From a virus (Duplodnaviria > Caudoviricetes), in IMG/VR virus record IMGVR_UViG_3300028906_000013, positions 1-25,578 of that record: DNA of 25,578 nucleotides; one strand, 5' to 3'. This document shows, piece by piece, positions 1,427-20,258 of this stretch; the first letter of the stretch is position 1, and every line of letters begins with the position of its first letter. The notes beneath the pieces were generated by a model. It did no database searches, had not been told where the DNA came from, and saw only the letters and a program-made list of their open reading frames with translations. Both the position numbers and the translations under genes were made by a program.

Positions 1427-3123
1427 TCGATGACTCCCGCGAGGGCTCTGGGGTTTACGAGGCCGGGAAGGTTGGGTGTCGCCCTGAGCTTCAGAGCGCT
1501 TGTGCTCGAAGCGTTCGCGGGCTGCAACGCGAGCTGCGTCGGCGTGTAGATCGCGAGATCGCCCAAGCCGGGGAGGGTTTCTTCGCCCGGATAGAGATCG
1601 CCCGGAAAGAGTGGTGTTCCGGCTTCGGAGATGCCACCCGCCGAGTTGAGGGCTATGTCTGTGGGTGTCGCGTCGCGGAACGTGCCACCACTGATCCCGG
1701 CGGCGGGGTTGAGCAGCGTGTAGGCTGGTGCCGTCGCGGCGAGGCTCGCGCTGGATACCGCTGCCGCCTGCTGCATGTCGATGTGGGCGTTCAGGAAGAG
1801 ACTTCCACCCGAGACCCCTGCAGTTGGTTCCAGCGGGATCTGGGTGTTGGCTGTAACCCCCAGGCTGCCGGTGCTCTGCCCGACTGCAGGTTCGAGGGAC
1901 ACCCGGCCTGTGGTGGTCGCGGTGAGCGTCCCGCCACTGGTCGCTGTCGCCTGGGCGAGCGGAACCCCGGTTGGGGCGGTGAGCGGTGTCACCCCGGTTT
2001 CTGATTTGCTCGCGCCCGGCGAGAGGACGACGGTCGTTTCGGCGCTTACCGCCAGCGTGCTTTCGGAGCGTCCGACCGCTTCATTCATCGAGAGCGGGGC
2101 GGTCGTGACAGCCGTGAGGCTTGCACCACTCGATCCCGCAGACGCGGTGAGCGGGATCTGAGTAGGCGCCGTTAGGGGAAGGTCGGACTGCCCTGGGTAG
2201 GTTTCTTCGCCGGGATAGAGTTCTTCGCCGGGTTCAACGCCGGGTGCGCCTGCTTCGGACTGCCCGGATGCCCCGCTGAGGCCAATTTGGGTGTTTGCTG
2301 TCGCCGCGAGAGACCCCGAGCTAGATCCGATGCTGCCACTCAGCGCCGTCCGAGAGGGGGCAGTGAGAGGGGCGACGGCCGCGCTCTGGGCGACGGACGC
2401 CGCGAGTGCAACCTGCGTCTTAGCCGTCACTGCGAGACTTCCGCCGCTCGAGCCGCCGGAAGCGCTCAGTGCGACGGGTATCGGTGCTGGCGCGGCCGCG
2501 TATGCTGCAATCAGGCCAGCCCATGTGCCCGTCGTGGAGAACGTGCCTGTCGCGGTTGCTTTGCTGCCCGCTGTAGGTGTGAGGAGGTACTCCGCTCCGA
2601 GAGACCCGCCCGTCTGGTCAGCGCCAGTGAGTCCTGTTGCACTGCCGCCCGCCGTGAAGGTGCCGAGTGACGCGGTGCTTCCGAAGACACCGATCCAGGC
2701 GTCCCCTTCGAGGAGATTCCCCGTGGTCGGACCCGCCGAGACAGCGGTGCCGATCCCGCTTCCCGAGCCTTTCGTGTCGAGCCAGCTGGTCGATTTGACG
2801 CCCGAGAGCTCGTAGGCCGCTGCCTCGACGATGAGGCTCGCGCCGAACCCGTTGATACTGATCGACGTGACGCCTGCCGTCGTGATCCTCGCGGAGAAGA
2901 TCATCACCGTGATGGCGACGCCGCTCGTGATTTCCGCGTCGAGGTTGTAGGTCGCTCCCGAGGAGTCTGAGCAGGACGCCGCACCCGTTGCGGCTGCCGT
3001 TGCTACCGCGACGACGAGGGTGTTGCCGACGGCGCCAGCGGTGATCGGGAGTGTGACCGCGCCCCCGCCGAGTGGGCTTGTCGTGACTACCTGGCCGCTA
3101 TTGCGGACGAACGTGATAGCCAT
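1423..3123 (-). CDS. Ala/Gly/Ser/Thr-rich fibre-like virion protein: N-terminal beta-sandwich plus ~14 imperfect ~21-aa repeats
   Basis: 566-aa ORF. Repeats such as IPLTASAGSSGASLTAVTTAP and VSLEPAVGQSTGSLGVTANTQ, plus two LYPGEETxPG motifs. Confidence 0.7.
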   Translation of the reverse strand: MAITFVRNSGQVVTTSPLGGGAVTLPITAGAVGNTLVVAVATAAATGAASCSDSSGATYNLDAEITSGVAITVMIFSARITTAGVTSISINGFGASLIVEAAAYELSGVKSTSWLDTKGSGSGIGTAVSAGPTTGNLLEGDAWIGVFGSTASLGTFTAGGSATGLTGADQTGGSLGAEYLLTPTAGSKATATGTFSTTGTWAGLIAAYAAAPAPIPVALSASGGSSGGSLAVTAKTQVALAASVAQSAAVAPLTAPSRTALSGSIGSSSGSLAATANTQIGLSGASGQSEAGAPGVEPGEELYPGEETYPGQSDLPLTAPTQIPLTASAGSSGASLTAVTTAPLSMNEAVGRSESTLAVSAETTVVLSPGASKSETGVTPLTAPTGVPLAQATATSGGTLTATTTGRVSLEPAVGQSTGSLGVTANTQIPLEPTAGVSGGSLFLNAHIDMQQAAAVSSASLAATAPAYTLLNPAAGISGGTFRDATPTDIALNSAGGISEAGTPLFPGDLYPGEETLPGLGDLAIYTPTQLALQPANASSTSALKLRATPNLPGLVNPRALAGVIE

Positions 3124-3166
3124 CCGGGCTCCTATCGGTGCTGGTGAACCTCACGCGAAGCGGCAG

Positions 3167-3379
3167 TCACGCCTCGGTCGCCGTCTGGGCGTCGACCTGG
3201 GCCTGGATCTGGGCGGTGACCTCGTCGAGGGTGAATCTGGGCCAGTCCTTGGCGGACACGATCTTCACCGCGTTCCCGGGCTGCCCGTTCTCGCCCTCGA
3301 GTGCCAGCGGCTGCAGGTTCTCGCCGTCGTCAACGACGTACTCGGGTTGCACAACCACTCTGACGAGTCGGACCTTCAT
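3167..3379 (-). CDS. Small hypothetical protein (70 aa), possible spike chaperone
   Basis: ATG at 3379 overlaps the TGA of the 738-aa gene (ATGA); MKVRLVRVVVQPEYVVDDGENL... Confidence 0.65.
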   Translation of the reverse strand: MKVRLVRVVVQPEYVVDDGENLQPLALEGENGQPGNAVKIVSAKDWPRFTLDEVTAQIQAQVDAQTATEA

Positions 3380-5592
3380 ACGCCCGCTATCGCTTCCCAT
3401 GCCGTGGTGCTGGTGGCGAAGTACATCCGGGTCCCAGCCGCGCCATCTGACCGGAAGTACACGTCACCTTTGGCCTGCCCCGTGAGGGTGCCCGGCGCGC
3501 CTTTCCCGGAGAACTGTTTGACGCCTTCCGAGCCGACCTGCAGCGACGGATTGAGAGCGCCAGTGGCATTGACACGCATGGCGGCTTCCGCGGCCCGCGA
3601 GAGATTTAGCTCTGGGAGTGCGGTGCCGCCTCCCCACTGGATAATCCCGTCCTGCGTGATGACGAACGAATCGGCGGTAGCACCTTCGAGTTTGACTGCT
3701 AGCCACCACTGTTTTGCTGTGGTCGTCGAGACTTCCAGCATGACCGTTTTTTCGCTCGGGGCACGGCCCCCGAGCAGGAAGTTGATCCCGGTCGCGGGAC
3801 CGAGGGCGGGTTTGGAGAGGGTGACCGTCGTTGCGTTGACGTAGGTAACGGTCGTGCCTTCCTGTATGACGGACGGCACAGTCTTTGTGGAGACGAGCTG
3901 GGAGAGTGACTGGCCAGTGTCCCCTGAAGTGAAGGCGGCTGTCGCGCTTTTCAGTTTCGTGAGTTCGCCTTCGACCACTTCCCCATCCGGGAAGCCCTTG
4001 CCCTTCAGCGATTGGATGACCATCGGGACGCTGGAGGCATATAGGTTGACCCTGATCGGGCTGGCTTTGGCGCTGTAGCTCGTCGCGGTCAGCCCAATCC
4101 CCGACGCCCCGGGCGCCTGGCCAACCGACACCCCGAAGCCCGCCGCCTTGACGCTGACGAGGATCCCCCCAGTGGAGCCGTAATCAGTTCCGATGCCGTA
4201 GAGCGCGAAATCGGTCGCATTCTGCCCGGCGACACTGTGGTAGAGGTAGCCACCTTTGCCTTCGTCAATGAAGTCCCATGCGCCCTGGGTGGCTTCGCCT
4301 TCGGCCTTGAGGACGATGCCCGAGCCCGCTTCGGTGCGGAAGAGAGGCGCGATTTCGTTGGGGGTCGAGCCACCGTAGATGGGCGTCTCGGTGAGTGTTA
4401 TGTCACGCCGATCGAAGTTGGTCCCGCCGGAGACTGTCAGCTTGCCGCTGACGCGCCCCGTCTGCGCGACCACTCGTCCGAAGGACGCTTCTCCGTATAT
4501 TTGGTTATTCGCGTCGAGCAAATGGTCTTTTGTTTTAGACCAGGGGCCTGCATACGTCCCGGCCCAGTCCTCGATGTCCCAGAGGTTGATCAGGAGTTGC
4601 GCGAGGTGCGTGGCGGGGATAGAGATCGCCCCCGCGGCGGGGGAGTAGCTGCCGATGTGGTAGACGCACTCCTGCGTAAGCAGGCGGTTGACGATCGACG
4701 AGTGCCCGTCGTTGACATTGATCTGTTCGTTGCCGGTGACGCCGAGACCGAGGATGCAGTAGTTGGCGAGAATCGACTTGGCATTGAGGTGGGCGGAGTT
4801 GCCGATCACACCCGCATAGAGGCCCCTGACGGAGATGCTTTCGACGAGGACTTCGTCGGAGTTGCCGCCCTCCGGGAGCCAGATCCCGAAGGCCGTGGGA
4901 TGGGTCGGTTCGACTTCCGCATACCCTTGGCCGAAGATTTCCACGTCCATCTTGCCGACGCCGACCATCCGCGAGAGGTTTACCCCGGCGATAGAGGGGT
5001 TGCTCGGGAGGTATATGCGCACGTCGGTCATTTCCACGACCGTCGCGCTGAAGTGGGTGTTGACGCCGAGCTGCTCGGTGGTGGGTCCGCCGAGGAACGA
5101 CGGTGGGCCGTGTTCCGCCGAATAGGTCGTTTCCGCTGGCGGTTCGACGTTGAAATGCGTCTTGCCTGGCGCCCCGCGAAACCACAGACGCTGGTTGATG
5201 CCGCCATAGATGGGGAGCGCCACGATCGAGTTCCCCTGCCGGTCGGTGCGGGGGGCTGTTCTGATGTTGTAGGTCGCACCCAGCCGCACTTCAGCCCGGG
5301 GGATTTTGTTGGTGACGGTGTAGTCGATCAGCGCCTGGAATGCCCGCGTGTAGTCTTCGCCTGGTTTGATCCCAAGTTCGGCTGCAAAGTCCTCGGGGTA
5401 CAGAGCGAGGATGCCGAGAGCGGAGCCTTCTTCAGCGAGAGCTCTTCTGATTACCACCGAGGCCGGAAGAGGAATCGCCCCGCTCGTGACCTGCGCCCCT
5501 AGGGCTTCTTCGGCGGCGTTGAGGTTCTGTCGGTTGAGCTTGGTCGGTTCGGCTTCGCCCCTGTTTTTCCATGGGAAGACGGAAAGGGCCAT
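3376..5592 (-). CDS. Tailspike-like protein with probable right-handed beta-helix (polysaccharide depolymerase/receptor-binding)
   Basis: N-terminal W.N...T.LN..NLN..E anchoring motif; YPEDF..EDYTRAFQALID resembles the pectate_lyase_3-type helix start; beta-rich body; C-terminal GAP....KGDVYFRSDG....MY.....W module seen in phage fibres. Confidence 0.75.
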   Translation of the reverse strand: MALSVFPWKNRGEAEPTKLNRQNLNAAEEALGAQVTSGAIPLPASVVIRRALAEEGSALGILALYPEDFAAELGIKPGEDYTRAFQALIDYTVTNKIPRAEVRLGATYNIRTAPRTDRQGNSIVALPIYGGINQRLWFRGAPGKTHFNVEPPAETTYSAEHGPPSFLGGPTTEQLGVNTHFSATVVEMTDVRIYLPSNPSIAGVNLSRMVGVGKMDVEIFGQGYAEVEPTHPTAFGIWLPEGGNSDEVLVESISVRGLYAGVIGNSAHLNAKSILANYCILGLGVTGNEQINVNDGHSSIVNRLLTQECVYHIGSYSPAAGAISIPATHLAQLLINLWDIEDWAGTYAGPWSKTKDHLLDANNQIYGEASFGRVVAQTGRVSGKLTVSGGTNFDRRDITLTETPIYGGSTPNEIAPLFRTEAGSGIVLKAEGEATQGAWDFIDEGKGGYLYHSVAGQNATDFALYGIGTDYGSTGGILVSVKAAGFGVSVGQAPGASGIGLTATSYSAKASPIRVNLYASSVPMVIQSLKGKGFPDGEVVEGELTKLKSATAAFTSGDTGQSLSQLVSTKTVPSVIQEGTTVTYVNATTVTLSKPALGPATGINFLLGGRAPSEKTVMLEVSTTTAKQWWLAVKLEGATADSFVITQDGIIQWGGGTALPELNLSRAAEAAMRVNATGALNPSLQVGSEGVKQFSGKGAPGTLTGQAKGDVYFRSDGAAGTRMYFATSTTAWEAIAGV

Positions 5593-5596
5593 CTGA

Positions 5597-6013
5597 TCAG
5601 ACCAGCGTCAGCGAGAGGACTTCGGCCGCGATCGACGCGGGAGTCTGCGTGGTCGAGATTACTGTTGAAGCCGCCGTGCCCCACATGATCACGTTGCCTT
5701 TCGCCGTTTCCGAGCTGTCACACGCGGCCCATGCGATGATCGTCGAGCTACCACCTGTGCAAGCAGCGAACGTGAAGGCTTCTTTGTTGTTGATCGAGCT
5801 GGGTGTCCCCGCGACAGCCGAGTTCAACACCGACGCGGGGACTTCCTTACGCAGATACCCCGTGTAGGTGGCCTCGGTGATCGTCGCACCCGTGCTTGCG
5901 TTCGTCGGCACTACGGTGAGGAGAGCGAGCCACATCGTGGGTTTCGCGAGTTCTTTCTTGCCCGATACGTGTTCCAGTGTTTTCGTGGCATACGCCTGTG
6001 AGAATCCCGACAT
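5597..6013 (-). CDS. Fibre-associated small virion protein (actinophage gp80-like)
   Basis: Motifs MSGFS..LEHV, WLALLT..P, EATYTGYLRKEV, N...FTFAACTG, GNVIMWG resemble a widespread phage fibre-associated family; SD GGAGG/AAGGA upstream. Confidence 0.7.
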   Translation of the reverse strand: MSGFSQAYATKTLEHVSGKKELAKPTMWLALLTVVPTNASTGATITEATYTGYLRKEVPASVLNSAVAGTPSSINNKEAFTFAACTGGSSTIIAWAACDSSETAKGNVIMWGTAASTVISTTQTPASIAAEVLSLTLV

Positions 6014-6016: not shown

Positions 6017-6358
6017 TTAGCCTCCGATCCCTATTTGGACAGGCCCGGAGGTCTGCTCATGCTCGGCAAGAGCCGGCTCGCTCAACGCGGCCAACCCCGC
6101 CTCGGTCATACGCCACCCATCAGCGTTCTCCGCGAAGCCCTTGGACTCCAAGCCCTCGAGGAAAACGCTGACCTGCTCTTCGGTCCGGGGGGGAATCGAC
6201 CCATCACCCAGGAGTCGTGCGGTTAGCTCGGCTAGCGTGTAGGAGCGGATGCTCTGCGCCGCGCCCCCGTCTAGCTCCGCCTGGATAAAGGCGTCCTCAT
6301 CTGCTGTCCATACCGGTAGATGCCCGAGGACGCGCCGTTCGGTGTCGGATGCGAACAT
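6017..6358 (-). CDS. Hypothetical protein with winged-helix-like segment
   Basis: YTLAELTARL..EEQVSVFLEGLESKGFAENADGWRMTEAGLAAL is wHTH-like; SD AAAGG upstream. Confidence 0.6.
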   Translation of the reverse strand: MFASDTERRVLGHLPVWTADEDAFIQAELDGGAAQSIRSYTLAELTARLLGDGSIPPRTEEQVSVFLEGLESKGFAENADGWRMTEAGLAALSEPALAEHEQTSGPVQIGIGG

Positions 6359-6371
6359 GAGCTGCCTTTCT

Positions 6372-6716
6372 CTAAATGAAGGTCACTCCGACCGTGGTGG
6401 TCGAAGCGGCGTGCAGGATCAGGGACGTGGTGGCAGAGGTGAGAGGAATGACCGCGAAGCCCTGGCCGAGCATCGGGAGACCTGCCTCCGCGAGGTTGAG
6501 ATTCGTGCGTAGCTTGACTTCGGGGCCTTCGATCGTCGTGAAGAAGAGCGCCGCGCTCACAGCGCCTTTCGGGACTGTGATCGTGTTATCGCCCGAGGCA
6601 AGTTCGAGGGTCTCGGACTCCGACAACGCGGTTGTGCCGGTGACTGTCATTGGGCCGATACCGATCTGCCCCGCCGGTCCTTCCGACTTACCGCCCAATG
6701 TCATCTGGCCGGCCAT
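6372..6716 (-). CDS. Small all-beta virion protein (hypothetical)
   Basis: 114-aa ORF coupled to the upstream gene (TGATG); beta-strand-rich (LASGDNTITVPKGAVSA). Confidence 0.7.
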   Translation of the reverse strand: MAGQMTLGGKSEGPAGQIGIGPMTVTGTTALSESETLELASGDNTITVPKGAVSAALFFTTIEGPEVKLRTNLNLAEAGLPMLGQGFAVIPLTSATTSLILHAASTTTVGVTFI

Positions 6717-6991
6717 CAGGCCACCAGATCCTCAATGTTGCACTCGGGGCAGCGAGCGGCGATCATGTTGTGCTCACAGCGAGGCATCGGCTTCCTGCCT
6801 CTACGGGGCCGCTCGGGGGTCGCGGTCTCCATCTCGGTCGTGTCCTCGGTTGTCTCTAGCTCCCCCATGCGGGCCAGTTCCACGTTCATGCAGTGAACCA
6901 TGCCTCCGTCACCAACAGAAGCAGCCTTCGCGCGCTGTTCACGAAACATCGCGGTGCGGCCGGCCCGCGTTGGGGGATAGACCGGGGTCAT
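6716..6991 (-). CDS. Small protein with C-terminal CxH-x6-CxxC putative Zn finger
   Basis: CEHNMIAARCPEC; coupled by TAATG and TGATG junctions. Confidence 0.65.
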   Translation of the reverse strand: MTPVYPPTRAGRTAMFREQRAKAASVGDGGMVHCMNVELARMGELETTEDTTEMETATPERPRRGRKPMPRCEHNMIAARCPECNIEDLVA

Positions 6992-7593
6992 TACGACAGG
7001 ATGAAGAAGGGCACGAGTTCGTTACCCGCAACGGTCCATTCCGCCGCCGCTTCCGTCGCGGCTTTCTGTGCGACCTGCCCGCCCCACACGGGGGCTCCGG
7101 CAGCGAAGGACACCGCGAGTGGTTTGATTTTCCAGCACGCCACCGCAGCGATCGTGGTAGCAGACGAGTTGATCGCCGCATACACGAATTTGTTGGGGGC
7201 GTTTTCTTCGTTGATCAGGACCGGTTTTTCGAGTTCCTGCGTGAAGTTCGCTTCTTTTTTCACCGCTGCGGTTGCCGCTTTGCTCTGGCCGAGCAGTTTG
7301 GAGGCTTTACCGAGAGCAACCCCCCCGTATAGCGCCATGAACGTTTCCGAGGCCGCTTCGCCTTCCGTCCCCGCGATCGGGACCGTAAGCGCGCTGATCT
7401 CCCATCCCCATTCGACGGGGACCGCAGCGATCTGCGTTTTTTTGGTGGTCAGCACCGATTCAGTGAGAGAACCCGACCCGTGAAACGCGAGGTTCGTCGC
7501 TCCCGGGTAGATGCCCGTCACCTTGTTGGAGATGCCCACGGCCGTGAAGACCGGGTTCTGCTGGTAGTAGCGTCCTGATCCAAGATCAGCCAT
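6991..7593 (-). CDS. Probable capsid decoration/cement protein (200 aa)
   Basis: Directly after the capsid gene; SD AAGGAG before ATG 7593 (MADLGSG...), preferred over the ORF-track start at 7650; beta-rich. Function inferred from position. Confidence 0.6.
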   Translation of the reverse strand: MADLGSGRYYQQNPVFTAVGISNKVTGIYPGATNLAFHGSGSLTESVLTTKKTQIAAVPVEWGWEISALTVPIAGTEGEAASETFMALYGGVALGKASKLLGQSKAATAAVKKEANFTQELEKPVLINEENAPNKFVYAAINSSATTIAAVACWKIKPLAVSFAAGAPVWGGQVAQKAATEAAAEWTVAGNELVPFFILS

Positions 7594-7620
7594 TGTCTTG
7601 CTCCTTTGGGAAGGGTTGGG

Positions 7621-7648
7621 GAGGAGCGAGCCCGAAGACCCGCCCCTC
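7621..7648 (-). terminator. 12-bp GC hairpin with C(UUCG)G tetraloop after the capsid gene (attenuator or mRNA stabiliser)
   Basis: Minus strand GAGGGGCGGGTC-TTCG-GGCTCGCTCCTC (three G-U pairs); no U-tract, so probably partial termination or stabilisation. Confidence 0.6.
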
Positions 7649-7656
7649 ACACGTCT

Positions 7657-9417
7657 TTAGAAGGCGTAGCCGCCGAGGGTCGGTTCCGTCGGGGCCGACG
7701 AGAAGCTCGTGCCGACCTTGAACGGTTTGCCGCCAGCGAACTGCAGCGACGGGCCATACCTCACCAACAGGGCGATGTAGGCATACACCTGGAACCGGAT
7801 CTGGAGCGTTCCAGAGACAACCTCCGGGAGGACCCTCACGCGCAGGTCCGACTCGAAGAACCACACGTCGTCGCCCTTCATCGTCAGGCAGTAGCTGAAC
7901 GCTTCCGTCCCGGACGTGATGAGCGCTTCCGCTGCTTTGTTGGACGCCGCGACGATTTCCGCTGCGCTCCCCGTCTTCTGCGAGTTCGCGGAAGGCAGGA
8001 TCGGAGGGATGTTCGCCGACTGGAACACCGACGGCCCGAGGGGCGTTTTGAACAGGAACCCCTCCGGCTGGGTGTCTGACGCCAACAGACCCGAAGTGTT
8101 GAAGTTCGGGAAGTCGGTGTTGTTGAGCAGCAGGCGGCCCTTTTCGGATTCGCTGTCTGTCGCTGACGCGAGGTACGCCCCGAACGCCGGGTTGATGAAG
8201 TGATGCACGTTCTGGGTGTTGAAGCGTTCCTTCGCGATATGCGACCAGTTGGCGCCCATCGCCGCGATCAGCACCTGCGGAGAGACCGCACTCGATGATT
8301 CGCGGTGGCCGGCCTTCCATTCGTTCGCGCCTGACCCCAGTGACGGGAAGAGGCCCTTGATTGTCCCCGCGTTCAGGGTCGAGGCGTTCAGCCCCTGCCC
8401 ATAGGAGACGTTCTGGTCGACCTTCAGGTGATAGTCCGCCAGGAGGTCTTCCTGTACCACCCGGTCGAACATCTGCCCCGGTGACTGCTCGATCAGCTGG
8501 ATAGCGACATCCTGCTGACCCGCCAACGTCTTCACGGCAGCTTCGACGTATTCGGTTTCGATGTCCCTCGAAGCGACCCCGGCGTTGTCCTGCAGCTGGG
8601 GGGCGACTTCCGCACCGAGCTTGATCTTCGGGAGTTTGATCGTGTCGGTCCCGAGAGGCACAGGCATGTTTCGGCACTGGGTCGAGATGACCCTTCCGGC
8701 GCGCAGCGCCTCGATGTGCCCGGTCTCCACCAGCCACAACGGGGGTACGTATTCTCCACCGGCCCCAGGGGCACGGGAGGGGTTCGCGCGCTGTTCAAAT
8801 GCACGCATCTCGAATGGTGACTGGGTGAGTCCCCCGCGTAGGCCGAGGCTCTTGCGGAACTCGCGCTCCGCTGCCTCCGTCTGGTCTTCGGCGGCACGGC
8901 GGGCTGCCGCCTCGCGGCTCTCGACGGTGTCCTCCATCTGCTTGCCGTGCTTGGCACGGCGTTCGTCCGCCGCTGACCAGCCGCCCTCGGGCATGAACCG
9001 GCCACGGAGAGAGTTCTCCGAGCCGATCAGGTCCTTGAAGAAGCTGTGTTCCTGGGCGTTGTCCTGCCGGTAGACGAGAGGGTCTTTCTGGGATTCGATT
9101 TCCTCGTGCTCGAGTCCGGCGTCGTCGGCGAGTTTGCGGCGCTCGGCCCTTTTGGTGAGCGTGTCAACGCGAGCGTCGATCTCTTTGAACTGGCGCTCCA
9201 TGTCGTCGTTCGCGGCGCGGTACTCCTCCTCCGCGAGGTTGAAGGCGTCGCGCTCCTCGTCAGTGGGACGTTTTGACTCGTCCTCGTCTTTAAGGCGCGC
9301 CTCGAACTCCGTGCGTGCCTGCTCGCGGCTGTCGATCAGCTCGTCCCATTTACTGGCGATCTCCGCCCGCTGGTCTTTGAGCCCGTCGAGAACCGTTGGC
9401 TCAGTTGCTGTAGCCAT
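7657..9417 (-). CDS. Major capsid protein (HK97 fold) with long N-terminal coiled-coil delta/scaffold domain, 586 aa
   Basis: SD AAAGGA before ATG 9417 (MATATEPT). Coiled-coil N-terminus, then FEQRANPSRAPGAGGEYVPPLWL, IKLPKI, VKTLAGQQDVAIQLIEQSP and SGTLQIRFQVYAY, typical of actinophage HK97-type capsids. Confidence 0.92.
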   Translation of the reverse strand: MATATEPTVLDGLKDQRAEIASKWDELIDSREQARTEFEARLKDEDESKRPTDEERDAFNLAEEEYRAANDDMERQFKEIDARVDTLTKRAERRKLADDAGLEHEEIESQKDPLVYRQDNAQEHSFFKDLIGSENSLRGRFMPEGGWSAADERRAKHGKQMEDTVESREAAARRAAEDQTEAAEREFRKSLGLRGGLTQSPFEMRAFEQRANPSRAPGAGGEYVPPLWLVETGHIEALRAGRVISTQCRNMPVPLGTDTIKLPKIKLGAEVAPQLQDNAGVASRDIETEYVEAAVKTLAGQQDVAIQLIEQSPGQMFDRVVQEDLLADYHLKVDQNVSYGQGLNASTLNAGTIKGLFPSLGSGANEWKAGHRESSSAVSPQVLIAAMGANWSHIAKERFNTQNVHHFINPAFGAYLASATDSESEKGRLLLNNTDFPNFNTSGLLASDTQPEGFLFKTPLGPSVFQSANIPPILPSANSQKTGSAAEIVAASNKAAEALITSGTEAFSYCLTMKGDDVWFFESDLRVRVLPEVVSGTLQIRFQVYAYIALLVRYGPSLQFAGGKPFKVGTSFSSAPTEPTLGGYAF

Positions 9418-9419
9418 GA

Positions 9420-9553
9420 TTCGTCCTTTCAGAGAGCCCCAGACGGGGCCGTTTGTGTGGTCTCCTACGGGCGGTGCTCGACCACGGGACGGCGACACAC
9501 GCACATGTGGGCGTGTCAACGGTCCCGAGCGGAGTCCAACGCGTCGGGGTGGA
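9420..9553 (-). promoter_or_regulatory. Structured intercistronic leader upstream of the major capsid gene
   Basis: Nested stem CGGGAC..GACACGC/GCGTGTGTC..GTCCCG and hairpin GCCCC-GTCT-GGGGC just before the SD. Confidence 0.45.
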
Positions 9554-10735
9554 TCAGAATTCGGGGGCGGGTTTCATCCCTGCCCCGGTGAGCACCGAGA
9601 TCCCAGAAGGGAACCTGTGCGGCATCCAAGCTGTCGTGCGGTGCAGGCGGAACCGCACCTGCAGGGTTCCGGAGGTGGCGTCCTCGATAACTGCCTGCAG
9701 TGGCCGGGACTGCCACAGCATGAAGTCATCGGAGCGGACCGCAAGAATCGGCTCTTGGTTCCCGTTGACGGTCCGGGGGATCGCGTCATCGAGATATACC
9801 GAGAAGCCAGCGAAAGAGGAGATGGGCCAGTCCCCGCCAACGTTGTCGGTGAGGATCAACGGCCGCTGTTCAGACGTGGGTACTGTCGCCAGATACGCCT
9901 GCCTCGCCGTTGTCCAGAGAAGCGCGTCGGCTGGCCGTTTGCGTTCGATGCCGACTTTGGCGATGGCCACACCTATCTTTTCGAACAGGGTGCCGGCGGC
10001 AAGGGTCGCGTAGCTGATCGCATTGATTCCCGTGACGTTCAGGAGGCCGAGAGGTTCGGTGACCGTTTCCCCGTTCCCGGTGATCATGTCGGTCTCTAGT
10101 TCGGAGTAGAGCGATTCCTCCAGGTCGGTGAAGACAACCCAGTCCAAATGCGCTCCGGGCGGGGACATCTCCAGGTCCTGGATCGCCCAATCGCTGATCC
10201 CCCCGTAGAGGATGGCCTGCGCCTTGACTTTTTCGGTTTCGACATCCTGCATGTTCGCCCCGGTACCGGGGGTCTCGTCGTTGGCCAAGGTGCCCTTCAG
10301 CATCCTGGGGAGGTTCACGCTCGACACACCGGGGGGCAGGTCGAACTCGTGGCCCTCTTCGTTGATGAGCCGCTGGAGGATCTTCCCGGGCCTGCGAGCC
10401 TCCGCGAAAAGATGGTTCAGCCAGAGTGGCGGGGCGTACTCCCCACCGTGACCCGCTTCGACGTTGGGGTTGACGCGGTACTCGAACTCGGTCCCCTCAA
10501 GCGTGCGGGTCTCCCGGAGCTTGGAGATCGTGTCCATCTGACGGCCGTGGCGCTCCAGGCGCTCCCCGGCCCCGCTGTTGTTGCGGATTTCCGCCAGCGC
10601 AAGATCCCGGTAGTAGCTGGTGCTCCCGTACTGGTAGACGAGCTCCTCGCGGGTCTGTCTGCGGGCCTCAAGCTCGGCTGTCTCGATCGCTGCGCGCTCC
10701 TCCTCTGTCGGCTCGCGCTCTGGGGTCTCCATCAT
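9554..10735 (-). CDS. Second HK97-fold capsid protein paralog with short N-terminal domain, 393 aa
   Basis: FEYRVNPNVEAGHGGEYAPPLWL, VNLPRM, AIQDLEMSP, ITGNG..EPLGLLNVTGI and SGTLQVRFRLH are colinear with the 586-aa capsid; ATGA-coupled to the protease. Confidence 0.9.
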   Translation of the reverse strand: MMETPEREPTEEERAAIETAELEARRQTREELVYQYGSTSYYRDLALAEIRNNSGAGERLERHGRQMDTISKLRETRTLEGTEFEYRVNPNVEAGHGGEYAPPLWLNHLFAEARRPGKILQRLINEEGHEFDLPPGVSSVNLPRMLKGTLANDETPGTGANMQDVETEKVKAQAILYGGISDWAIQDLEMSPPGAHLDWVVFTDLEESLYSELETDMITGNGETVTEPLGLLNVTGINAISYATLAAGTLFEKIGVAIAKVGIERKRPADALLWTTARQAYLATVPTSEQRPLILTDNVGGDWPISSFAGFSVYLDDAIPRTVNGNQEPILAVRSDDFMLWQSRPLQAVIEDATSGTLQVRFRLHRTTAWMPHRFPSGISVLTGAGMKPAPEF

Positions 10736-11850
10736 GCGGCCCCCGCGATCGTCCTGGCCCTGCGTGCCCGCTCGGACTCGGCGGATGGGATGATCACTGC
10801 GAGCGGGTCGGCTTGAGGGGCCTCGGGCTCGGGCTCAAGCGCCGGCAGAAGACCTTGGAGCTTCTCGATTGCCGCTTTGATCTCGCTCGCGTTCTTGGTG
10901 GAGATGGCCTTTCCGGCACGCGCCTCCACCATCGCCTCACCGAGATGCTCGATACCCATGTCCTCGAAAGCCCTGAGGCCGGCTGACGCGGCGGGGTTGG
11001 CTCCGAAGTTCACCACCGACACGTCACCCTTGTGCAGGCTCACGTCGATCAGGCTGCGTTTGCGGTAGTCCTTGTCCCACTCCTGGTCACGGGCGCGGAA
11101 GGCGAAGCTGGATTCGTCCATGTCTTCGCGCTCGAGCTTCGGGAGTAGGCGCTTTACATCCGGGTCATGCAGCTGGAGATCCACGTCGTAGCGAAGACCC
11201 CTGTGGGGTTCTTCGAGCCGAAGACTGCCGGTTTTCGTACGTCCCATCGGCATGTCCCCGTGGTTAGCGAGGAACATCACATCTGGCTTCTCGCCAAGGG
11301 TGCGCCTACAGAAGCCGCGTACGGCCCGCTCTTCGTAATCCCCTACCTCGTACCAGCATTCGGTAACGCTCGCGTAGCCCCCGACCTGGACGATGCCTTC
11401 GGGCCGCTCGCGTAGCTCAAGGCCCACCGGCCCCCACGCCTCCTGCCAAAACCGACGCTCGGGCATCCCGTCCACAAGTTCAGCGCGCGCCTTGCGGCGT
11501 TCCTTCGCGGCCCATGCAGCGGTGCGCTGCTCGGTCTCTGGCTCCTCCGAGCGACCGTCAACCGGCTCGTAGCTCGTAACCGGCTGGACCTCCTGAGCAT
11601 CCCCGAGGGAAATACCATCGTCCCCTTCCTCGTAGGGGACCTGGAACATCTTCCCGCCCGATTCATAGGTCGCCGTGTCGTCGTCAAAGTCGGTGAGGTA
11701 GGCGCTTAGCGCTCCGCCGTCGGGCTGGTCCCTGATTGCGGATGAGAGTGCCCGGTGCCGGTCCTTGAAGCTCGGCCCTTCCCGGTGCTCGGGGTCCCAG
11801 ACAGCGGCGCGCGCCTCAAGCTCTGCGTCGGTCAACTCACTCATAGGCAC
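10732..11850 (-). CDS. HK97-family prohead protease with N-terminal extra domain
   Basis: GYASV, FLANHG..PMGRT..GSLRL, GLRYD, SSFAF and GDVSVVNFGANP motifs (His/Ser catalytic candidates in NH and SSFAF); C-terminal RAGKAISTKN...I helix. Confidence 0.92.
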   Translation of the reverse strand: MPMSELTDAELEARAAVWDPEHREGPSFKDRHRALSSAIRDQPDGGALSAYLTDFDDDTATYESGGKMFQVPYEEGDDGISLGDAQEVQPVTSYEPVDGRSEEPETEQRTAAWAAKERRKARAELVDGMPERRFWQEAWGPVGLELRERPEGIVQVGGYASVTECWYEVGDYEERAVRGFCRRTLGEKPDVMFLANHGDMPMGRTKTGSLRLEEPHRGLRYDVDLQLHDPDVKRLLPKLEREDMDESSFAFRARDQEWDKDYRKRSLIDVSLHKGDVSVVNFGANPAASAGLRAFEDMGIEHLGEAMVEARAGKAISTKNASEIKAAIEKLQGLLPALEPEPEAPQADPLAVIIPSAESERARRARTIAGAA

Positions 11851-11865
11851 CTCCGTGGGTGCAGG

Positions 11866-13077
11866 TCACTTCGACGGTGGAACGTTGCCCTTGGAGGGCG
11901 GAGGGATCTGGACAGGTTCCTGGCCCATTTCCCTTTCGCTGTTCTGCAGCTCCTTCAACGCTTCCAGAGCCATCTTGTACATCTCAGTGTTGATCGGGAC
12001 ATAGGTTTCTTTCCCGGTGCCCTTCGGCAACGGGGGCATGTCGAACGTAGCTCGCACGTCGTCTGCGCACCATGCGCCGCAGAGCATCATCAGCGAGCCG
12101 ACCTGTGCCCTCTGCACCGAATCACCACGAATACGGTGGTGCAGGTTGAAGTTCGCGAATTCACCCGGGGGAAGGCATTCGGTGAGCGCCAGTTCCCCTC
12201 GGCAGAGATACCCAGCGAGGGTGTCGGTTACGTAGCTTCGCTCCTGCTGCTCGATGCCTCGCCCGAAGCTCGTTGACCGTTCGTTGAGCCCCACCTTGTG
12301 CGGTGGAATACGGAAGATCAGTCCGCTGATTTCCTCCGCCGAGTATTTCCTGGCTTCAAGCAGCTGCTGGTCAGCGGGGCTGATCGAGATCGGGTTGAAT
12401 TTCGCTTCCTCGGTAAGGACAGCGGGGAGACTCGACTTGCTCGTCCCCTGATGCGCCGACATCCACGACTTGGCGAGGGCCTTCGTCTCGGTCTCCCCGA
12501 GTTTGCCCTTCGCTTCGATCACGCCGCGCGGGTCAGCGCTGTTCTTGTAGACCGTCGTGGCATGCACATCCATCACATGCGCCAGCCCAAGGGAGTGGCG
12601 GAGTAGGCCGATCGGGTTCAGCCCGAGGAGCATTCCGGGCATGACCTGATAGCGGACATGGAACAGGTTTTCCGAGTTGATCGGGTGCCCCGCCACATAC
12701 CACTTCACGCCTTTGGACGTGATTTCCGGACGCACCATGTCAGGGTTCAACGGCATGATCTGCGTCGGATAGCCAAGCCAGTCCCGTTCGACGATCAGCC
12801 CGAAGAAGTTCCCTCGCAACGCGAGGCTCCAGATAAACGCGCAGAGCCAGTCGATCCGGCTGATCGGCTCATACGGCTTTTCCAGCAGGAGAGGTGTCGG
12901 GAGTTCCTTCGCCGTGTTCACCCACGCGGGCTTATCCAGCACCCGCAACGGGAGCGAGACAACGGAATCGGCGAGCAGCGAGCAGCAGCCATACACGGCC
13001 GCAATCTCTGGTGCCGTCTCCGAGGTGACGTGCGTCGGACTACCAGCGCTGCCCCCTGGTGGCGGCGGCGCCGTCAT
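11866..13077 (-). CDS. Portal protein (HK97 family); an upstream in-frame N-terminal segment is separated by a TGA
   Basis: AVYGCCSLLADSVVSLPL, LALRGNFF, PLNPDMV, GLNPI, P.GVI, QQLLEARKYS..FRIPPHKVG, GIEQQ, DDVRATFDMPPL motifs. Confidence 0.95.
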   Translation of the reverse strand: MTAPPPPGGSAGSPTHVTSETAPEIAAVYGCCSLLADSVVSLPLRVLDKPAWVNTAKELPTPLLLEKPYEPISRIDWLCAFIWSLALRGNFFGLIVERDWLGYPTQIMPLNPDMVRPEITSKGVKWYVAGHPINSENLFHVRYQVMPGMLLGLNPIGLLRHSLGLAHVMDVHATTVYKNSADPRGVIEAKGKLGETETKALAKSWMSAHQGTSKSSLPAVLTEEAKFNPISISPADQQLLEARKYSAEEISGLIFRIPPHKVGLNERSTSFGRGIEQQERSYVTDTLAGYLCRGELALTECLPPGEFANFNLHHRIRGDSVQRAQVGSLMMLCGAWCADDVRATFDMPPLPKGTGKETYVPINTEMYKMALEALKELQNSEREMGQEPVQIPPPSKGNVPPSK

Positions 13078-13092
13078 TCCCCATTCGAGCGC

Positions 13093-13155
13093 TCACAGAT
13101 ACGGATTCGCCCCCCGAATCTCCATGAGCGTTCGTGCGGCTCTCCGTATCAGCAT
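13093..13155 (-). CDS. 20-codon in-frame N-terminal portal segment ending in TGA (MLIRRAARTLMEIRGANPYL*)
   Basis: SD AAGGGGGTGA before ATG 13155; same frame as the portal; 5 sense codons (ALEWG) between the TGA and ATG 13077. Confidence 0.55.
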   Translation of the reverse strand: MLIRRAARTLMEIRGANPYL

Positions 13156-13185
13156 ACATCACCCCCTTGGGGCACTTAGGGGATG

Positions 13186-13395
13186 CTACGCAGACTGGTG
13201 ACGGGCTCTAAATGCCTGCCAGCGGCGGGATGCGTGTGCTCGGAGCCACATGAGCGGGTGAACCTCCTCCGCAGCAAGTCCCATCGTGAAACACGCTCCA
13301 GCCACGACTAGGAGGGCTAGGGCTCTCCCGGAGTATTCGTAGGCCGCCCCGGTGAGAGAAGCGAAGCCGAGAAGCTCTAGGCCGTTGGAGAGCAC
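13186..13395 (-). CDS. Small two-TM membrane protein preceding the portal
   Basis: LELLGFASLTGAAY..ALALLVVAGACFTMGL. Small membrane genes at this position are common in HK97-like phages. Confidence 0.7.
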   Translation of the reverse strand: MLSNGLELLGFASLTGAAYEYSGRALALLVVAGACFTMGLAAEEVHPLMWLRAHASRRWQAFRARHQSA

Positions 13396-13554
13396 CTATG
13401 CAGCCTTCCAGCGCGGCAGGCTCTTCTTACCTGCACCCGAGCGGTGGTTAGCAGCCCGCAGCCGACGTTCATTCAAGGGGAGTTTCTGCTCACCTTTCGC
13501 TTCTCGTCTGGCGCGCTTGGCTGCCCGCTCTGGGTCCTCTACTCTCCGGCGCAT
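13396..13554 (-). CDS. Small basic protein (52 aa)
   Basis: Not in ORF track: MRRRVEDPERAAKRARREAKGEQKLPLNERRLRAANHRSGAGKKSLPRWKAA*. Its stop abuts the GTG of the next gene. Confidence 0.5.
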   Translation of the reverse strand: MRRRVEDPERAAKRARREAKGEQKLPLNERRLRAANHRSGAGKKSLPRWKAA

Positions 13555-13700
13555 TGGACTGCGCCCCCCTGATGGGTAGCGACGTACTGAGCGGCCAGCT
13601 TCTTCGCCTGCTCCGCGGTGAGCGGGACCTCTACGGTGAGAACGCCCGTCGGGCGCGCTGCATCATCAAAGTAGGGAGTGTCCTTCTTCCGTCTGAACAT
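13539..13700 (-). CDS. 53-aa mini-protein homologous to the portal clip region
   Basis: Not in ORF track: SD AGGAGG, then MFRRKKDTPYFDDAARPTGVLTVEVPLTAEQAKKLAAQYVATHQGGAVQCAGE*. 11/37 ungapped identities (hand count) to the portal segment TVYKNSADPRGVIEAKGKLGETETKALAKSWMSAHQG. Confidence 0.65.
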   Translation of the reverse strand: MFRRKKDTPYFDDAARPTGVLTVEVPLTAEQAKKLAAQYVATHQGGAVQCAGE

Positions 13701-14067
13701 CTAACCCCTCCTGTGTGAGATTGAGGCGTCGTGCATCGCATCGACGCCCATGTGACCACCCCTCCGAAAGCCACGCGCTAAGCCTCACGGGGGATTGCGA
13801 AGCGGGGCCGAGCAGCATCATTGGACCGCCAAGCAGGCTTTCACGGTCGCTAACGAGAGCGAAAGCATTCCAAGAACCGCCCGAAGCAAAAGCTGAGAGC
13901 CATTGGTTCGCGATCGGGCTGCCCGCTGCATCGTACGTCAAGAGCTGTAGTTCGTCGTACAGATCCGGGTCCTCGGCCGCAACGGCACGCGCCCACGCAT
14001 CAACCTCGCGCAGGCTCGCAAAATGGGCGCGAGATGACCCCTCAGGATCAACGATCACGTAACGCAT
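13666..14067 (-). CDS. Hypothetical protein (moron)
   Basis: SD GGGAG before ATG 14067; protein-like N-terminal ~60 aa (MRYVIVDPEGSSRAHFASLREVDAW..LLTYDAAG); C-terminal part less convincing. Confidence 0.55.
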   Translation of the reverse strand: MRYVIVDPEGSSRAHFASLREVDAWARAVAAEDPDLYDELQLLTYDAAGSPIANQWLSAFASGGSWNAFALVSDRESLLGGPMMLLGPASQSPVRLSAWLSEGWSHGRRCDARRLNLTQEGLDVQTEEGHSLL

Positions 14068-14146
14068 CAGACTCCCATCCTACGTCGGCTTGGTCTCGGC
14101 AGGGTAAACATCGGCGACACGGTGCCGCGAAAAGCAGCGGCGCGGG

Positions 14147-14935
14147 ATGAAACATCTGCAAGACCTCGACAACGCAATCGCCGAGTGGGTCGGCGAGCCT
14201 GGGGTCGATCCGAAGCCGTACGAAATCTCCGGCGATTTCCGCCTGAACAGCCGAGAGTATGTCTTCAAGGGGAAGCTGCTCAAGCCCTTGGATGACCTCC
14301 TCCTGTGGGGCGTCATGTTCGGGGACGCGATCCACAATCTGCGATCCGCTCTCGATCACCTCGTCTGGCAGCTCGTCCTTGTCAACAAGAAGAGACCCAG
14401 CGGAAGCAACCAGTTTCCGATTTGCGACACGGGCGCGAACTATTGGAGCGCGGGATGGAAGGACGGGAAGAAGACGCCCAGCACCCGAGAGCGGCGGTTG
14501 GAGGGCGTCTCCGACGCCCATAAGGCACTCATCGACGAGGCACAGCCCTACCGTGCTCGGGTACCACCAAGCGCGATCCATGCGCTCTCCGCGCTCCGAG
14601 ACCTCTCGAACTACGACAAGCATCGACTTGTCCACCTGACCGACTTTGCAGTGGATTTTCCGAGCCGCGAGGCTTTGGACAACCTGTTCATCGTCAACGC
14701 CGACGCGGGCGAGCGGATCGGCACCAGATTCGAGCCGTTCCGGTACGACCGTGAGACAGAGGTCTTTGCGGTCGAGTACTCCTGTCCGGGACCAAACCCG
14801 GAGGTGAGCGTGCAGGGAAATCCTCCCCTCGGCATAGGCATTAGCGAGTCCCGAGCACGCTTCAGCCACCTCCAAGGGCTTGCCTTCGACATCGGCAGCA
14901 TCATCGAGGAATTCGCCCCCGACTTCCCCGTCTAG
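14147..14935 (+). CDS. HEPN-like all-helical protein (putative RNase/abortive-infection effector)
   Basis: GDAIHNLRSALDHLVWQL, NQFPI, IDEAQPY and LRDLSNYDKHR match a widespread family I recognise as HEPN-like. Only convincing plus-strand gene in the window. Confidence 0.7.
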   Translation: MKHLQDLDNAIAEWVGEPGVDPKPYEISGDFRLNSREYVFKGKLLKPLDDLLLWGVMFGDAIHNLRSALDHLVWQLVLVNKKRPSGSNQFPICDTGANYWSAGWKDGKKTPSTRERRLEGVSDAHKALIDEAQPYRARVPPSAIHALSALRDLSNYDKHRLVHLTDFAVDFPSREALDNLFIVNADAGERIGTRFEPFRYDRETEVFAVEYSCPGPNPEVSVQGNPPLGIGISESRARFSHLQGLAFDIGSIIEEFAPDFPV

Positions 14936-14983
14936 CTCGCTTGTATCGATCAGCATTTATACAGTCGCTCCCTATATGTGAGC

Positions 14984-15166
14984 CTAGACGGCTTCGCCGC
15001 GCGCCTGTAGGTCTTTGCGAACGTTTGCGTAGAATGCCGCAGACGCCCGAGCGTCGGGGTTCGAGATGTGAGGCGTGATCGCAACAAACGGGCCGCTCGT
15101 CCTGAGCTGGATTGGTGCCGGTGCGGTCTTTACGGTCTCGTAGCTGTCTTGTTCATTCGTCATCAT
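14984..15166 (-). CDS. Small hypothetical protein (60 aa)
   Basis: SD AGGAGG inside the end of the DUF3467-like gene, then ATG ATG; MMTNEQDSYETVKTAPAPIQLR... Confidence 0.6.
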   Translation of the reverse strand: MMTNEQDSYETVKTAPAPIQLRTSGPFVAITPHISNPDARASAAFYANVRKDLQARGEAV

Positions 15167-15434
15167 GGTCGCCCTCCTGAGGCATGCCTGCATCTTTAGT
15201 GTATTGCTCCCATGCACTGTTGAACAGGTCGCGCAGCTCGGCGAGCAGCAGGGGCGAGAAGTTGATCCGTGAGACGACTTCCCCCATCTGCCCCTGAGGT
15301 CCGATGCGGACGAAATCGAGCGTCAGCTCGTGCGGGGTGCGCTGAAGCGCGGCAAAGTTGGCCCAGTGACCCTCAAAGTCCTCCTGGGGCAGCATGATGT
15401 TCGGCTGCTGCTGTGGGGTTGGTGGCTGCGACAC
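15153..15434 (-). CDS. DUF3467-like protein
   Basis: GHWANFAALQRTPHELTLDF..GEVVSRINFSP...AEL..L matches the G.Y.N...E..LDF...V..RI..SP pattern. Start placed at GTG 15434 (MSQPPTPQQQ); ORF track uses 15458. Confidence 0.75.
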   Translation of the reverse strand: MSQPPTPQQQPNIMLPQEDFEGHWANFAALQRTPHELTLDFVRIGPQGQMGEVVSRINFSPLLLAELRDLFNSAWEQYTKDAGMPQEGDHDDE

Positions 15435-15479
15435 TGAAGTTCGATCATGCCGAAACACGGGTGGGATGTCTACCCCAGT

Positions 15480-16013
15480 TTACGTTCCCGCGACATGATC
15501 ATCCGAGTCATCGGCCCGCTGCGACCCTGCTTTAGGAGGCTGAGAACTTCCTGGCCGGGCTGGCTGAACCTGCTTAGGCGTGACTCGCGAGAGCTGATCG
15601 ATTGTCTCTTGCGTCAGCGGCAGGGCTTCGCGACCCAGCACTAGCGTCGGGCCGTGTGCGTGATACTCGCCGATACTTGGAGCCGCTGGTGCGGGGGGTG
15701 GCACAGTCGTCTCTTGGCGATCCTGAAGCCACTTAAGCCTTGCACCCTTCGCCCAGATGCCCAGGAAGAAGAACACCAGGAATAGGAGGAACAGGAAGGC
15801 TTCGACGTGTATATGGAGCACTACGACCGCTCCAAACAGTGCGAGGACGACCAAGATGCGTTCAGCGATCTTGATTGCAGGATGCTCGCTGACCTCGAAA
15901 AGCCAGCGCAAGCCATGCACCAGCGCCAATGGCCAGAACCACGCCCGATACATGAGCCATCGGATCGGATGGCGCGCTCGATCCAGCCCCGATGGAGGTA
16001 GCGTCCCCGACAC
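15480..16013 (-). CDS. Membrane protein (2-3 TM) with Pro-rich cytoplasmic tail
   Basis: Hydrophobic segments ILVVLALFGAVVVL and AFLFLLFLVFFFLGIW. Confidence 0.65.
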   Translation of the reverse strand: MSGTLPPSGLDRARHPIRWLMYRAWFWPLALVHGLRWLFEVSEHPAIKIAERILVVLALFGAVVVLHIHVEAFLFLLFLVFFFLGIWAKGARLKWLQDRQETTVPPPAPAAPSIGEYHAHGPTLVLGREALPLTQETIDQLSRVTPKQVQPARPGSSQPPKAGSQRADDSDDHVAGT

Positions 16014-16028
16014 GCCGTCGGAGTCTGA

Positions 16029-16280
16029 CTAGTCGAACAGCTCGATGCTTTCTTCGCGGAACGCCGCCACGACCAGGTCGAGCGCGTCCAGCCGCGACAG
16101 GCACGGGGAGGCCCAAAGCCGCTCACCGTGCCGGACAACAACGCGATCGGCCGCGAGCGTCTTGACAGCCGCTACAGCGCCCGAGCCAAGCAGACGCTCC
16201 AGACCATCTAGCGTGCGCTCGCGTTCAAGGACGAGGCGCACAACCTCGCGTTGCATCGCCGTGTCGTCCGTTCGCAGCAT
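16029..16280 (-). CDS. Small winged-helix-like protein
   Basis: VVRLVLE..TLDGLERLLG..AVAAVKTLAADRVVVRHGERLWAS resembles a wHTH (helix-turn-helix plus beta-wing). Confidence 0.6.
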   Translation of the reverse strand: MLRTDDTAMQREVVRLVLERERTLDGLERLLGSGAVAAVKTLAADRVVVRHGERLWASPCLSRLDALDLVVAAFREESIELFD

Positions 16281-16394
16281 CGCCTTGGACCGTAGACCGC
16301 AAAGGGCATCGTTTGCAGGGGAAAATCAAAATGATGCACTACCCAAGATCCGATGGGCCCTCCGTAGGGTGTGGCCCGTGAAGGCTGTACCTCG

Positions 16395-18026
16395 TTAGAG
16401 CTTCCCTTCTTCTCTTAGCTTGTCTGCGATCTGGTTCAGGTCTATGACCTGGGGGGTGCCTAGCGGTGTGAGCGTCACGACGCCCCAATAGGCGAGCGTC
16501 ACGCTGACCAGCGGGGAGATGTCCACGCTTGAGTCTTTGCGGCTCCAAGCCCACGCCTCGCTCAGGGAGCGCTTGGTTGCGCCCTTGATAGCGGAGGCGA
16601 GCTCGATCTCCCCGAGATGGCGGAGAGTGTCTTGCTTCACCGCGTCGAAGAACATCCCGCACGCCTGAGCGTGCTCTTTCGCGTTGACGACCGTGATTTC
16701 CCGGTCGACCAAGCCCGAGAGTAGATCGCCGTGCTCGGACTCGCGTAGCGCCTTTGTGAGGTCCGGCAGTAGGGCGCCGGCAGGCCCGGAAGCATCGAGG
16801 ATGACAGCGGTCGGCTTGTGCTTCCAGACGACCTCGACAAGGCGGTCTGCAACCCATCCGGTACCGCGCTTGTGCTCGACGAGCTCGACATGCACCTTCG
16901 AGTCGCTGCGCCGCCCTGCGACACCCAGGGCAGACCACGAGCGGTCGGGGGTCACGTCGATCTCGAAGCACAATGGACCCGCAGCCTCGGAGAGTTCGTC
17001 GGTGCGTGCCGCCCAGTCCTCCGGGCTGATCACGACACCATCCAAACCATCAGTGCGGGGCCACGCCCCGACGTTCAATCTCTCCACGGCAAACGCCCTA
17101 GGGGACATGGAGCGCTGCTCCTTCGCCACATAGCTCGGAGAGATCCGGATCCCCAACGCGGGGTTGGCTTCCGCCCACCGTTCGGGGTCGATCGCCATCT
17201 CCGGCGTCACGTCCTCCGGGCGATCAGCGTCAACCGAATGCTCGCCGTAGACCAGCGAAGGATCACCACCAGCTATCCCTCTCTCCCTCAGTCGGGCGAA
17301 GACCACGGCGTCATGTGCGGGGTCTTCCTCGTCGCCAGCTGATCCGGTGTACCAAATCTGCGGGTTGGGCTGGGCGGAGAGGATCGGCATCAGCGTGCCG
17401 TGGAACGCCTCCGGCAGGATCATCGCCTCATCGCAATACAAGCAGCCACAGGAGAACCCTCGGCCACCCGAACCCGTCCGGGGACGAAAGCGGAGCCTCG
17501 GCGCGACCCCCGTCCGAGGATGGCGGTGCAGGAGGATTTCCTCGCTGCCCTTCCCGCGCCTGATTTTCTTCACACGACGAGAGAACTCCGGTGTCCCTTC
17601 GATCAGATCCTCCAAGCGAAGAAACTGCTCCAGGGACGTATCGGCCATGTGGGCTGAGTGGATCTGCAGCGGTTCTTCGAGGAGGAACAAGCCCCCGAGC
17701 TGGCGGGCCTCAAGCTCCCCGTTCTTTCCGTTCTGGCGAGGAACAGTCAACCCGACCTCGAGCGCCGCCCACTGCCCATCCGAGGTTTCCCCCAACGCAG
17801 CAGTTAGATGAGCCTGCTGCCAAGGATCAAGGATCAGGCCACCCATCCGGGCGAGGTCGATCACTTCCGCACCCGACGACGACGCGTACGGGGGAGCCCA
17901 GAAAATCCTCGCTACCTGGCTACCGAGCAGCGCGTCGTTCGGGCCGACGATTGGCCCGCTGCTCCTTCCGAGTTGCCCAGCGGCAGTTCTCCGGGGAGTA
18001 GGGGCCTTCGTTGTCAATGCGCTCAA
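16395..18026 (-). CDS. terL: Terminase large subunit
   Basis: LDPWQ adenine-binding motif, Walker A VPRQNGKN, Walker B LYCDEA, YTGSA coupling motif, nuclease motifs IDVTPDR and [11 protein letters not shown]; SD GGAGG 9 nt before TTG 18026. Confidence 0.95.
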
Positions 18027-18417: not shown

Positions 18418-18433
18418 GCACACATTCTAGTAG

Positions 18434-20257: not shown

Positions 20258-20258
20258 C

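Follow-up and report, generated by a model that had tools for sequence, protein, structure and literature searches.

We analysed a 25,578-nt stretch of DNA from a tailed phage (Duplodnaviria; Caudoviricetes), positions 1 to 25,578 of IMG/VR record IMGVR_UViG_3300028906_000013 and hereafter called the window, in which two adjacent and diverged capsid genes encode a short protein that is a candidate penton subunit and a long protein that is a candidate hexon subunit. The head genes lie on the minus strand in the order large terminase (16395..18026; phrog_9, E 1e-63), portal protein (11866..13077, 403 aa; PF04860, E 7.6e-60, and phrog_12), S78-family prohead protease (10732..11850, 372 aa; PF04586, E 4e-22), short capsid paralog (9554..10735, 393 aa) and long major capsid protein (7657..9417, 586 aa), and all further features of this head locus are given on the same strand. 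The stop of the protease gene and the start of the short capsid gene overlap by 4 nt (ATGA), as had been noticed in an earlier reading of the window made without database searches (the sequence-only reading), and a 136-nt intergenic leader (9418..9553) separates the short from the long gene. An ATG start gives the long open reading frame (ORF) of 586 aa; the ORF finder stretches it to a TTG at 9519.

Sequence and predicted structure of the two capsid proteins

Both capsid ORFs are intact, and their products are colinear with 26% identity over 491 alignment columns (BLASTP, E 3e-21), all the shared motifs quoted in the sequence-only reading being present. The short and long proteins both match the phrog_2263 major head protein. 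They fall below the PF05065 and TIGR01554 cut-offs, the relatives at loci L100 and L024 lie above the TIGR01554 cut-off, and neither protein had a PDB sequence match by phmmer or profile search. AlphaFold2 models with a mean predicted local distance difference test score (pLDDT) of 78 for the short and 70 for the long protein both resemble HK97-fold capsids, and the short model, for which failure to adopt this fold would have told against the sequence-only reading, matched HK97 with a Foldseek E of ~1e-11 and a VIA Z of 19.6 to 1ohg (root-mean-square deviation 8.4, 262 aligned). Both paralogs are predicted from these models to adopt the HK97 fold, with an N-arm, an E-loop, a P-domain with its spine helix and an A-domain.

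The long protein contains the coiled helices of a delta domain at residues 9-99, an enlarged A-domain and a C-terminal extension, and the short protein of the window contains a mini-delta of ~87 aa, a complete E-loop, P-domain and spine, and a compact A-domain. The absence of most of the delta coil from the short copy proved to be a trait of the whole family, with a median of 33 residues ahead of the first shared motif in short proteins versus 96-118 in the others and no delta coil, and with a helical part retained ahead of the E-x-R motif. The span from the N-arm to the spine helix is 128-129 aa in short, long and single-capsid proteins alike. The A-domain span of the short protein is smaller than that of its partner in 30/30 pairs, with medians of 125 in 34 short proteins, 134 in 56 single-capsid proteins and 151-152 in 29 long partners, suggesting that the short A-domain shrank a little while that of the long partner grew more.

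The E-x-R motif of both proteins aligns with the mature start of the cluster J capsid, the N-terminus of which was determined by sequencing according to PMC3706429. Cleavage is predicted after R87 of the short protein (EYR/VNP, 10475..10477) by alignment with cluster J, and after R210 of the long protein (EQR/ANP, 8788..8790) by homology, which would leave mature forms of 306 aa (33 kDa) and 376 aa (40 kDa), respectively. The N-terminal delta scaffold of the long protein and the adjoining S78 protease point to an HK97-like head module with a cleavage site assigned by homology, and the related cluster J capsid is reported, in the same source, to be without isopeptide crosslinks.

The mature short protein was also modelled as a homotrimer, which reached a score of 0.71 (best control 0.00) with a pLDDT of 75 and a contact agreement of at least 83% among runs; the mark used here is reached by 20/30 solved pairs and 1/23 single chains. 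The modelled contacts run head-to-tail through A-domain helices and from E-loop to spine, and the short protein is predicted to self-associate like a capsomer, although the likeness to solved capsomers may itself be a cause of the pass. Two residues, A259 and G262, present in >90% of short proteins and rare in others, fall within the closest A-domain contacts of the model, and 26 positions of the short protein are invariant across 44 homologs. Some T4 bypass-24 mutations fall in a comparable A-domain interface, as PMC9958956 describes.

Relatives, phylogeny and selection

Single-protein searches of viral contigs found no relatives, but profile searches did, and 80 loci, not de-duplicated, were gathered with a profile of the long protein. 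The short paralog was present in 23/23 loci scoring at least 400 bits with that profile and in 7/57 loci below this score. After collapsing at 90% identity, 23 lineages carried the order portal-protease-short-long (type A) and 10 the order short-protease-long, with the portal upstream where the locus extends so far (type B); one locus (L030) has the long gene before the short gene. In two further pairs (L196:4873-7526 and L199, record G041), an insertion of ~0.8-0.9 kb interrupts the long gene close to profile position 217, which is reminiscent of the capsid intron of mycobacteriophage LittleE. The best 44 short-protein homologs among the matches listed (at least 120) were 40-100% identical and 379-413 aa long, and by eye 22 of the 44 lie on contigs equal in length to one that bears a long-protein homolog.

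A tail sheath is encoded by a type-A relative, and a type-B relative contains a tape measure gene with no sheath among the ORFs scanned. The small phage envisaged by the sequence-only reading is contradicted by relatives of ~60 kb, a close one of which carries the sheath. An actinobacterial host, as that reading proposed, is likely, one solo short copy lying in a metagenome-assembled genome (MAG) of Solirubrobacterales, but the label of one long homolog points to a MAG of Acidobacteria type, and the cluster look-up gave no host names. Among cultured relatives, 61 Mycobacterium phage records, clusters J and Y among them, each had one matching place. The profile gave one capsid gene in each of 24 records picked as single-capsid, of which seven are complete or have a completeness of 90% or more. 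Genome size is 59-62 kb in four complete records with two capsid genes and 36-39 kb in five complete relatives with a single one, and other two-capsid records reach 83 and 106 kb. A literature search that covered few subscription papers and no bioRxiv supplements listed no paper on this family, and no two-capsid statement was found in the accessible part of PMC7150772.

The short copies formed one clade in a FastTree phylogeny (40 of 146 rows) and in an IQ-TREE phylogeny with a mixture model, and in a tree of the mature core, from which four rows lacking an anchor were dropped, 20 short proteins of 51 rows fell on one side of a branch with support of 100/99. No single-capsid protein lay inside the short clade in these trees, and a separate duplication within type A was rejected by the approximately unbiased (AU) test (p 0.003). 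A common origin of all long partners was tolerated as a constraint (AU p 0.335), yet it was not recovered, and the mature-core tree contains two changes. The short and long proteins co-diverge with a Mantel rho of 0.82 in 19 type-A loci and 0.86 in 26 loci, whereas the short protein and the protease do so with a rho of 0.45, and on these values we reject the protease, as opposed to the long capsid, as the partner that the short gene follows. In the window itself, the long protein is 80% identical to that of L012, and the short protein is 48% identical to the short protein of L012 and 55% to that of L084. Because each gene rejects the grouping of the other (AU p 0.003 and far below 0.001), we conclude that the short gene of the window changed partner.

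Across 33 lineages with a mean identity of ~41-45%, the frame of the short ORF is intact. In six unsaturated pairs, the ratio of non-synonymous to synonymous substitution rates (dN/dS) was 0.14-0.39 for the short and 0.12-0.25 for the long gene, the highest values (0.36-0.39) being those of pairs that include the window. The short copy is, by these sequence comparisons, under purifying selection. The sequence-only reading had set absence from relatives or relaxed selection as the outcome that would speak against it, and the short copy was found to be conserved, syntenic and a clade of its own.

Probable assignment of the two proteins to pentons and hexons

Separate hexon and penton proteins have been solved in few tailed-phage systems and are called rare in two 2026 papers. 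In the Mycobacterium abscessus siphophage Jabs (bioRxiv 10.64898/2026.07.24.740622), MCPh and MCPp are adjacent HK97-fold paralogs as in the window; MCPh resembles the long protein in its removed N-terminal domain, its larger axial domain and its C-terminal extension, and MCPp has a smaller axial domain like the short protein but is 257 aa with no pro-domain. The short protein, unlike MCPp, keeps a mini-delta and the maturation motif, and the present proteins (mean 1.3-1.9 Cys) do not show the cysteine enrichment of Jabs. The c2-like Lactococcus phage Nocturne116 (PMC13595954) encodes a major capsid protein and an adjacent, ~24% identical vertex protein that has no scaffold and a shortened A-domain tip and forms 11 pentamers in a prolate, crosslinked head. 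The E-loop of that vertex protein is much smaller and its N-arm almost absent, whereas the N-arm, the E-loop and the spine of the short protein here span their full length.

The Ccm protein of SaPIbov5 is 24% identical to the phi12 capsid, has a shorter cleaved delta (1-87 versus 1-128) and occupies the pentamers (PMC8569155). Ccm is encoded by a satellite and redirects its helper, whereas the short gene of the window stands in the head operon of the phage itself, together with portal, terminase and long capsid genes; only solo copies of the short gene, such as that of island L100, have a Ccm-like setting. In T4 (PMC9958956), gp24 is a vertex paralog ~20% identical to gp23, is cleaved by the prohead protease and is thought to have arisen by duplication. 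The large, prolate T4 head differs from the one envisaged here. The T4 capsid uses separate scaffolding proteins and is not known to rely on a delta domain. Members of the same capsid family, the cluster J (Omega, BAKA) and Bipper-type capsids of phrog_2263, share 26-28% identity among the top matches listed and the same cleavage position (PMC3706429), but have one capsid gene per genome. The short clade branches among phrog_2263 capsids, suggesting that the present two-protein family may well have arisen separately from the solved vertex proteins.

Several features of dedicated vertex proteins such as gp24, the Nocturne116 vertex protein and MCPp, which are diverged paralogs (~18-25% identity) encoded close to the major capsid gene, are found in the short protein: a diverged adjacent paralog (26% identity), a shortened scaffold and a reduced A-domain. 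Taking these observations together, we think it probable, from genes and models, that the short protein is the penton and the long protein the hexon subunit. Under this assignment the long protein would scaffold assembly through its delta coil and form the six-sided faces, while the short protein, made at a lower level alongside the protease, would join as homo-pentamers to form the eleven five-sided corners (55 copies). The protease would cut both proteins at the shared E-x-R site, and the hexon protein, freed from the five-fold position, may have gained its A-domain loops. The dedicated penton of the sequence-only reading is in keeping with the anatomy and gains solved precedents beyond T4 in Jabs, Nocturne116 and Ccm.

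That reading had also proposed that two modes of translation initiation set the stoichiometry. The long gene does have a Shine-Dalgarno (SD) element (GAAAGGA, 9424-9430), but the short gene has its own SD-like element, of similar strength when scored against the usual anti-SD motif. The SD was stronger for the long than for the short gene in 21/30 pairs (p 0.026; the pairs are not independent), which lends the proposal weak support. A CCGAAAGGA-type SD recurs before the long gene in relatives, and the protease and short genes overlap by -4 or -1 in 18/20 type-A loci with a scored protease. The leader of the long gene, which had been called structured, is as a whole no more stable than shuffles (z 0.08), but a small 6-bp hairpin (9435-9450) beside the SD recurs in relatives. 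Likewise, the hairpin noted 3' of the long gene holds as a 12-bp stem with a C(UUCG)G loop (7621..7648), although the stretch that contains it differs from shuffles by a z of only -1.1; as it has no U-tract, it is likely mRNA-stabilising rather than a terminator. No sigma-70-type promoter was found at the locus. A lower output of the short than of the long protein is plausible.

Several results weigh against the penton and hexon assignment. The three-copy model does not distinguish pentameric from hexameric rings. A clade of seven single-capsid proteins (L177, L180, L183, L184, L187, L188 and L190) has A-domains that span 170-189 aa, and their records yielded no further capsid gene, suggesting that a large A-domain needs no separate penton. 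The SD strengths in the window are nearly equal (-8.6 for the short versus -9.3 kcal/mol for the long gene), and codon use reveals no expression gap (17/28), both of which count against initiation-set stoichiometry as well. The partner change in the window implies loose partner specificity. In addition, dS is close to saturation in most pairs, and the near-identical strains L127-L131 differ at 0-1 codons of the long gene versus 2-6 codons of the short gene, where most of the changes are non-synonymous.

Two alternatives have to be weighed. In the first, the long protein would fill all positions and the short protein, perhaps at pentons, would act as a size or shape switch that sets head size or a second particle class. 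Such an effect has a precedent in Ccm, which occupies the pentamers and thereby turns prolate heads into isometric ones (PMC8569155), and short-clade genes without a partner occur in portal-less elements; the complete two-capsid genomes (n=4) are also larger than the single-capsid ones (n=5). Size does not follow the pair, however, as only one such gene is present in Bipper (78 kb) and Omega (111 kb), the cluster J phage BAKA has a T=13 head with one gene (PMC3706429) and the two-capsid records extend to 83 and 106 kb. Given also that the short gene lies within the core late operon, where the promoter search drew a blank, we consider a size switch unlikely; it would be compatible with a penton position and is not exclusive of it.

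In the second, the short protein would be an assembly helper or minor shell subunit with no vertex specificity, which might bring in the protease, nucleate assembly close to the portal or, as in two-component encapsulins, mix at random with the long protein. The short gene does stay beside the protease gene in both orders A and B, commonly overlapping it in type A, a small domain is mobile between the protease and the short capsid, and encapsulin shells built of two HK97-fold components are on record (PDB titles 9bje and 9bix). Against this stand the closer co-divergence with the long capsid than with the protease, the whole lattice-forming core retained by the short protein and its clade-specific residues at predicted self-contacts, so that this explanation appears about as improbable as the first. 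A decaying or neutral duplicate, to which the longer branches of the short genes, the high dN/dS in the window pairs and a satellite-type copy (L191) broken by an insertion sequence might point, is largely refuted by the conservation of frame, the dN/dS well below 1 and the invariant positions, and we regard it as very improbable.

With its dozens of natural pairs, sister lineages that have a single capsid gene, an exchange of partner and solo copies of satellite type, the family offers a comparative system for asking what residues bind an HK97-fold subunit to a five-fold or a six-fold place, why quasi-equivalence is given up and how capsid pirates of the Ccm type originate.

Solo short copies and neighbouring genes

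Some members of the short clade lack a long partner gene. In L100, a 14.3-kb island (6114-20476) at tRNA-Val is bounded by a perfect 45-nt attachment (att) repeat. Besides a helicase/primase, a protease and two integrases, it contains a single capsid gene, which belongs to the short clade, with no portal or large terminase in a profile search; it is a candidate Ccm-like satellite. L102, L092, L094, L097 and L191 look similar, although L100 is the one with defined ends. In L092 (808-3512), L094 (1440-6547) and L191 (6516-13850), the short-clade capsid is followed by a 125-160-aa unannotated protein, which may be a detached scaffold, and then by the protease; a small terminase lies upstream in L094 and L191, and no portal was found in the three. 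The solo copies fall in both type-A and type-B subclades and could represent redirectors of the Ccm type, satellites that form a capsid of their own, or remnants.

A gene of ~100 codons, absent from the window, directly follows the short gene in seven two-capsid lineages (L004, at 1178-1474, L008, L009, L012, L017, L196 and L199); it is conserved and coupled to the short-capsid stop, and variable genes of fibre- or LamG-like type often come after it. Its product is a possible vertex spike; PRD1_P5_spike_N is present in 32% of the proteins of its cluster (score 0.86), too weak a match to name it. An A-loop motif tried as a marker of this gene fitted nine close lineages and was rejected, as it fails in L196 and L199. 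We tentatively, and with considerable doubt, propose that an ancient penton family travels as an exchangeable vertex module of protease and penton, with or without the small spike gene, that it partners several hexon lineages in phages with contractile and with non-contractile tails, and that portal-less islands captured it at least twice as a Ccm-like head pirate. If so, satellite capsid redirectors could derive from pentons that phages already possess, instead of from new duplications of the major capsid gene.

Downstream of the long capsid gene in the window, a 200-aa protein (6991..7593) with no family match in Pfam, PHROGs or Atlas is a possible decoration protein. Its gene follows 22/27 two-capsid loci and 10/50 single-capsid loci, the latter ruling it out as a pair-specific partner. 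The window protease carries at its N-terminus (aa 26-100; 11551..11775) a small domain without a family name, delineated by an iterated hidden Markov model and matched by no Pfam family. In some loci this ~80-aa domain forms one end of the protease, N- or C-terminal, and in four others (L015, L020, L127 and L135) the same iterated search finds it fused to the short-capsid N-terminus.

Between terminase and portal, the window holds ~3.3 kb of non-structural ORFs (13078-16394), one of them on the opposite strand (14147-14935); this distance is smaller in most relatives. At 458-6013, a PF23140 (Gp80 fibre) gene and genes for repeat-rich proteins of 738 and 566 aa stand between the capsid genes and a 322-aa BppU_N-like gene, and their products are possible head or neck fibres. 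By the end of the window (25323-25544) lies a short tandem repeat that reads as HRGRAG/HQGRVG-type units in one frame.

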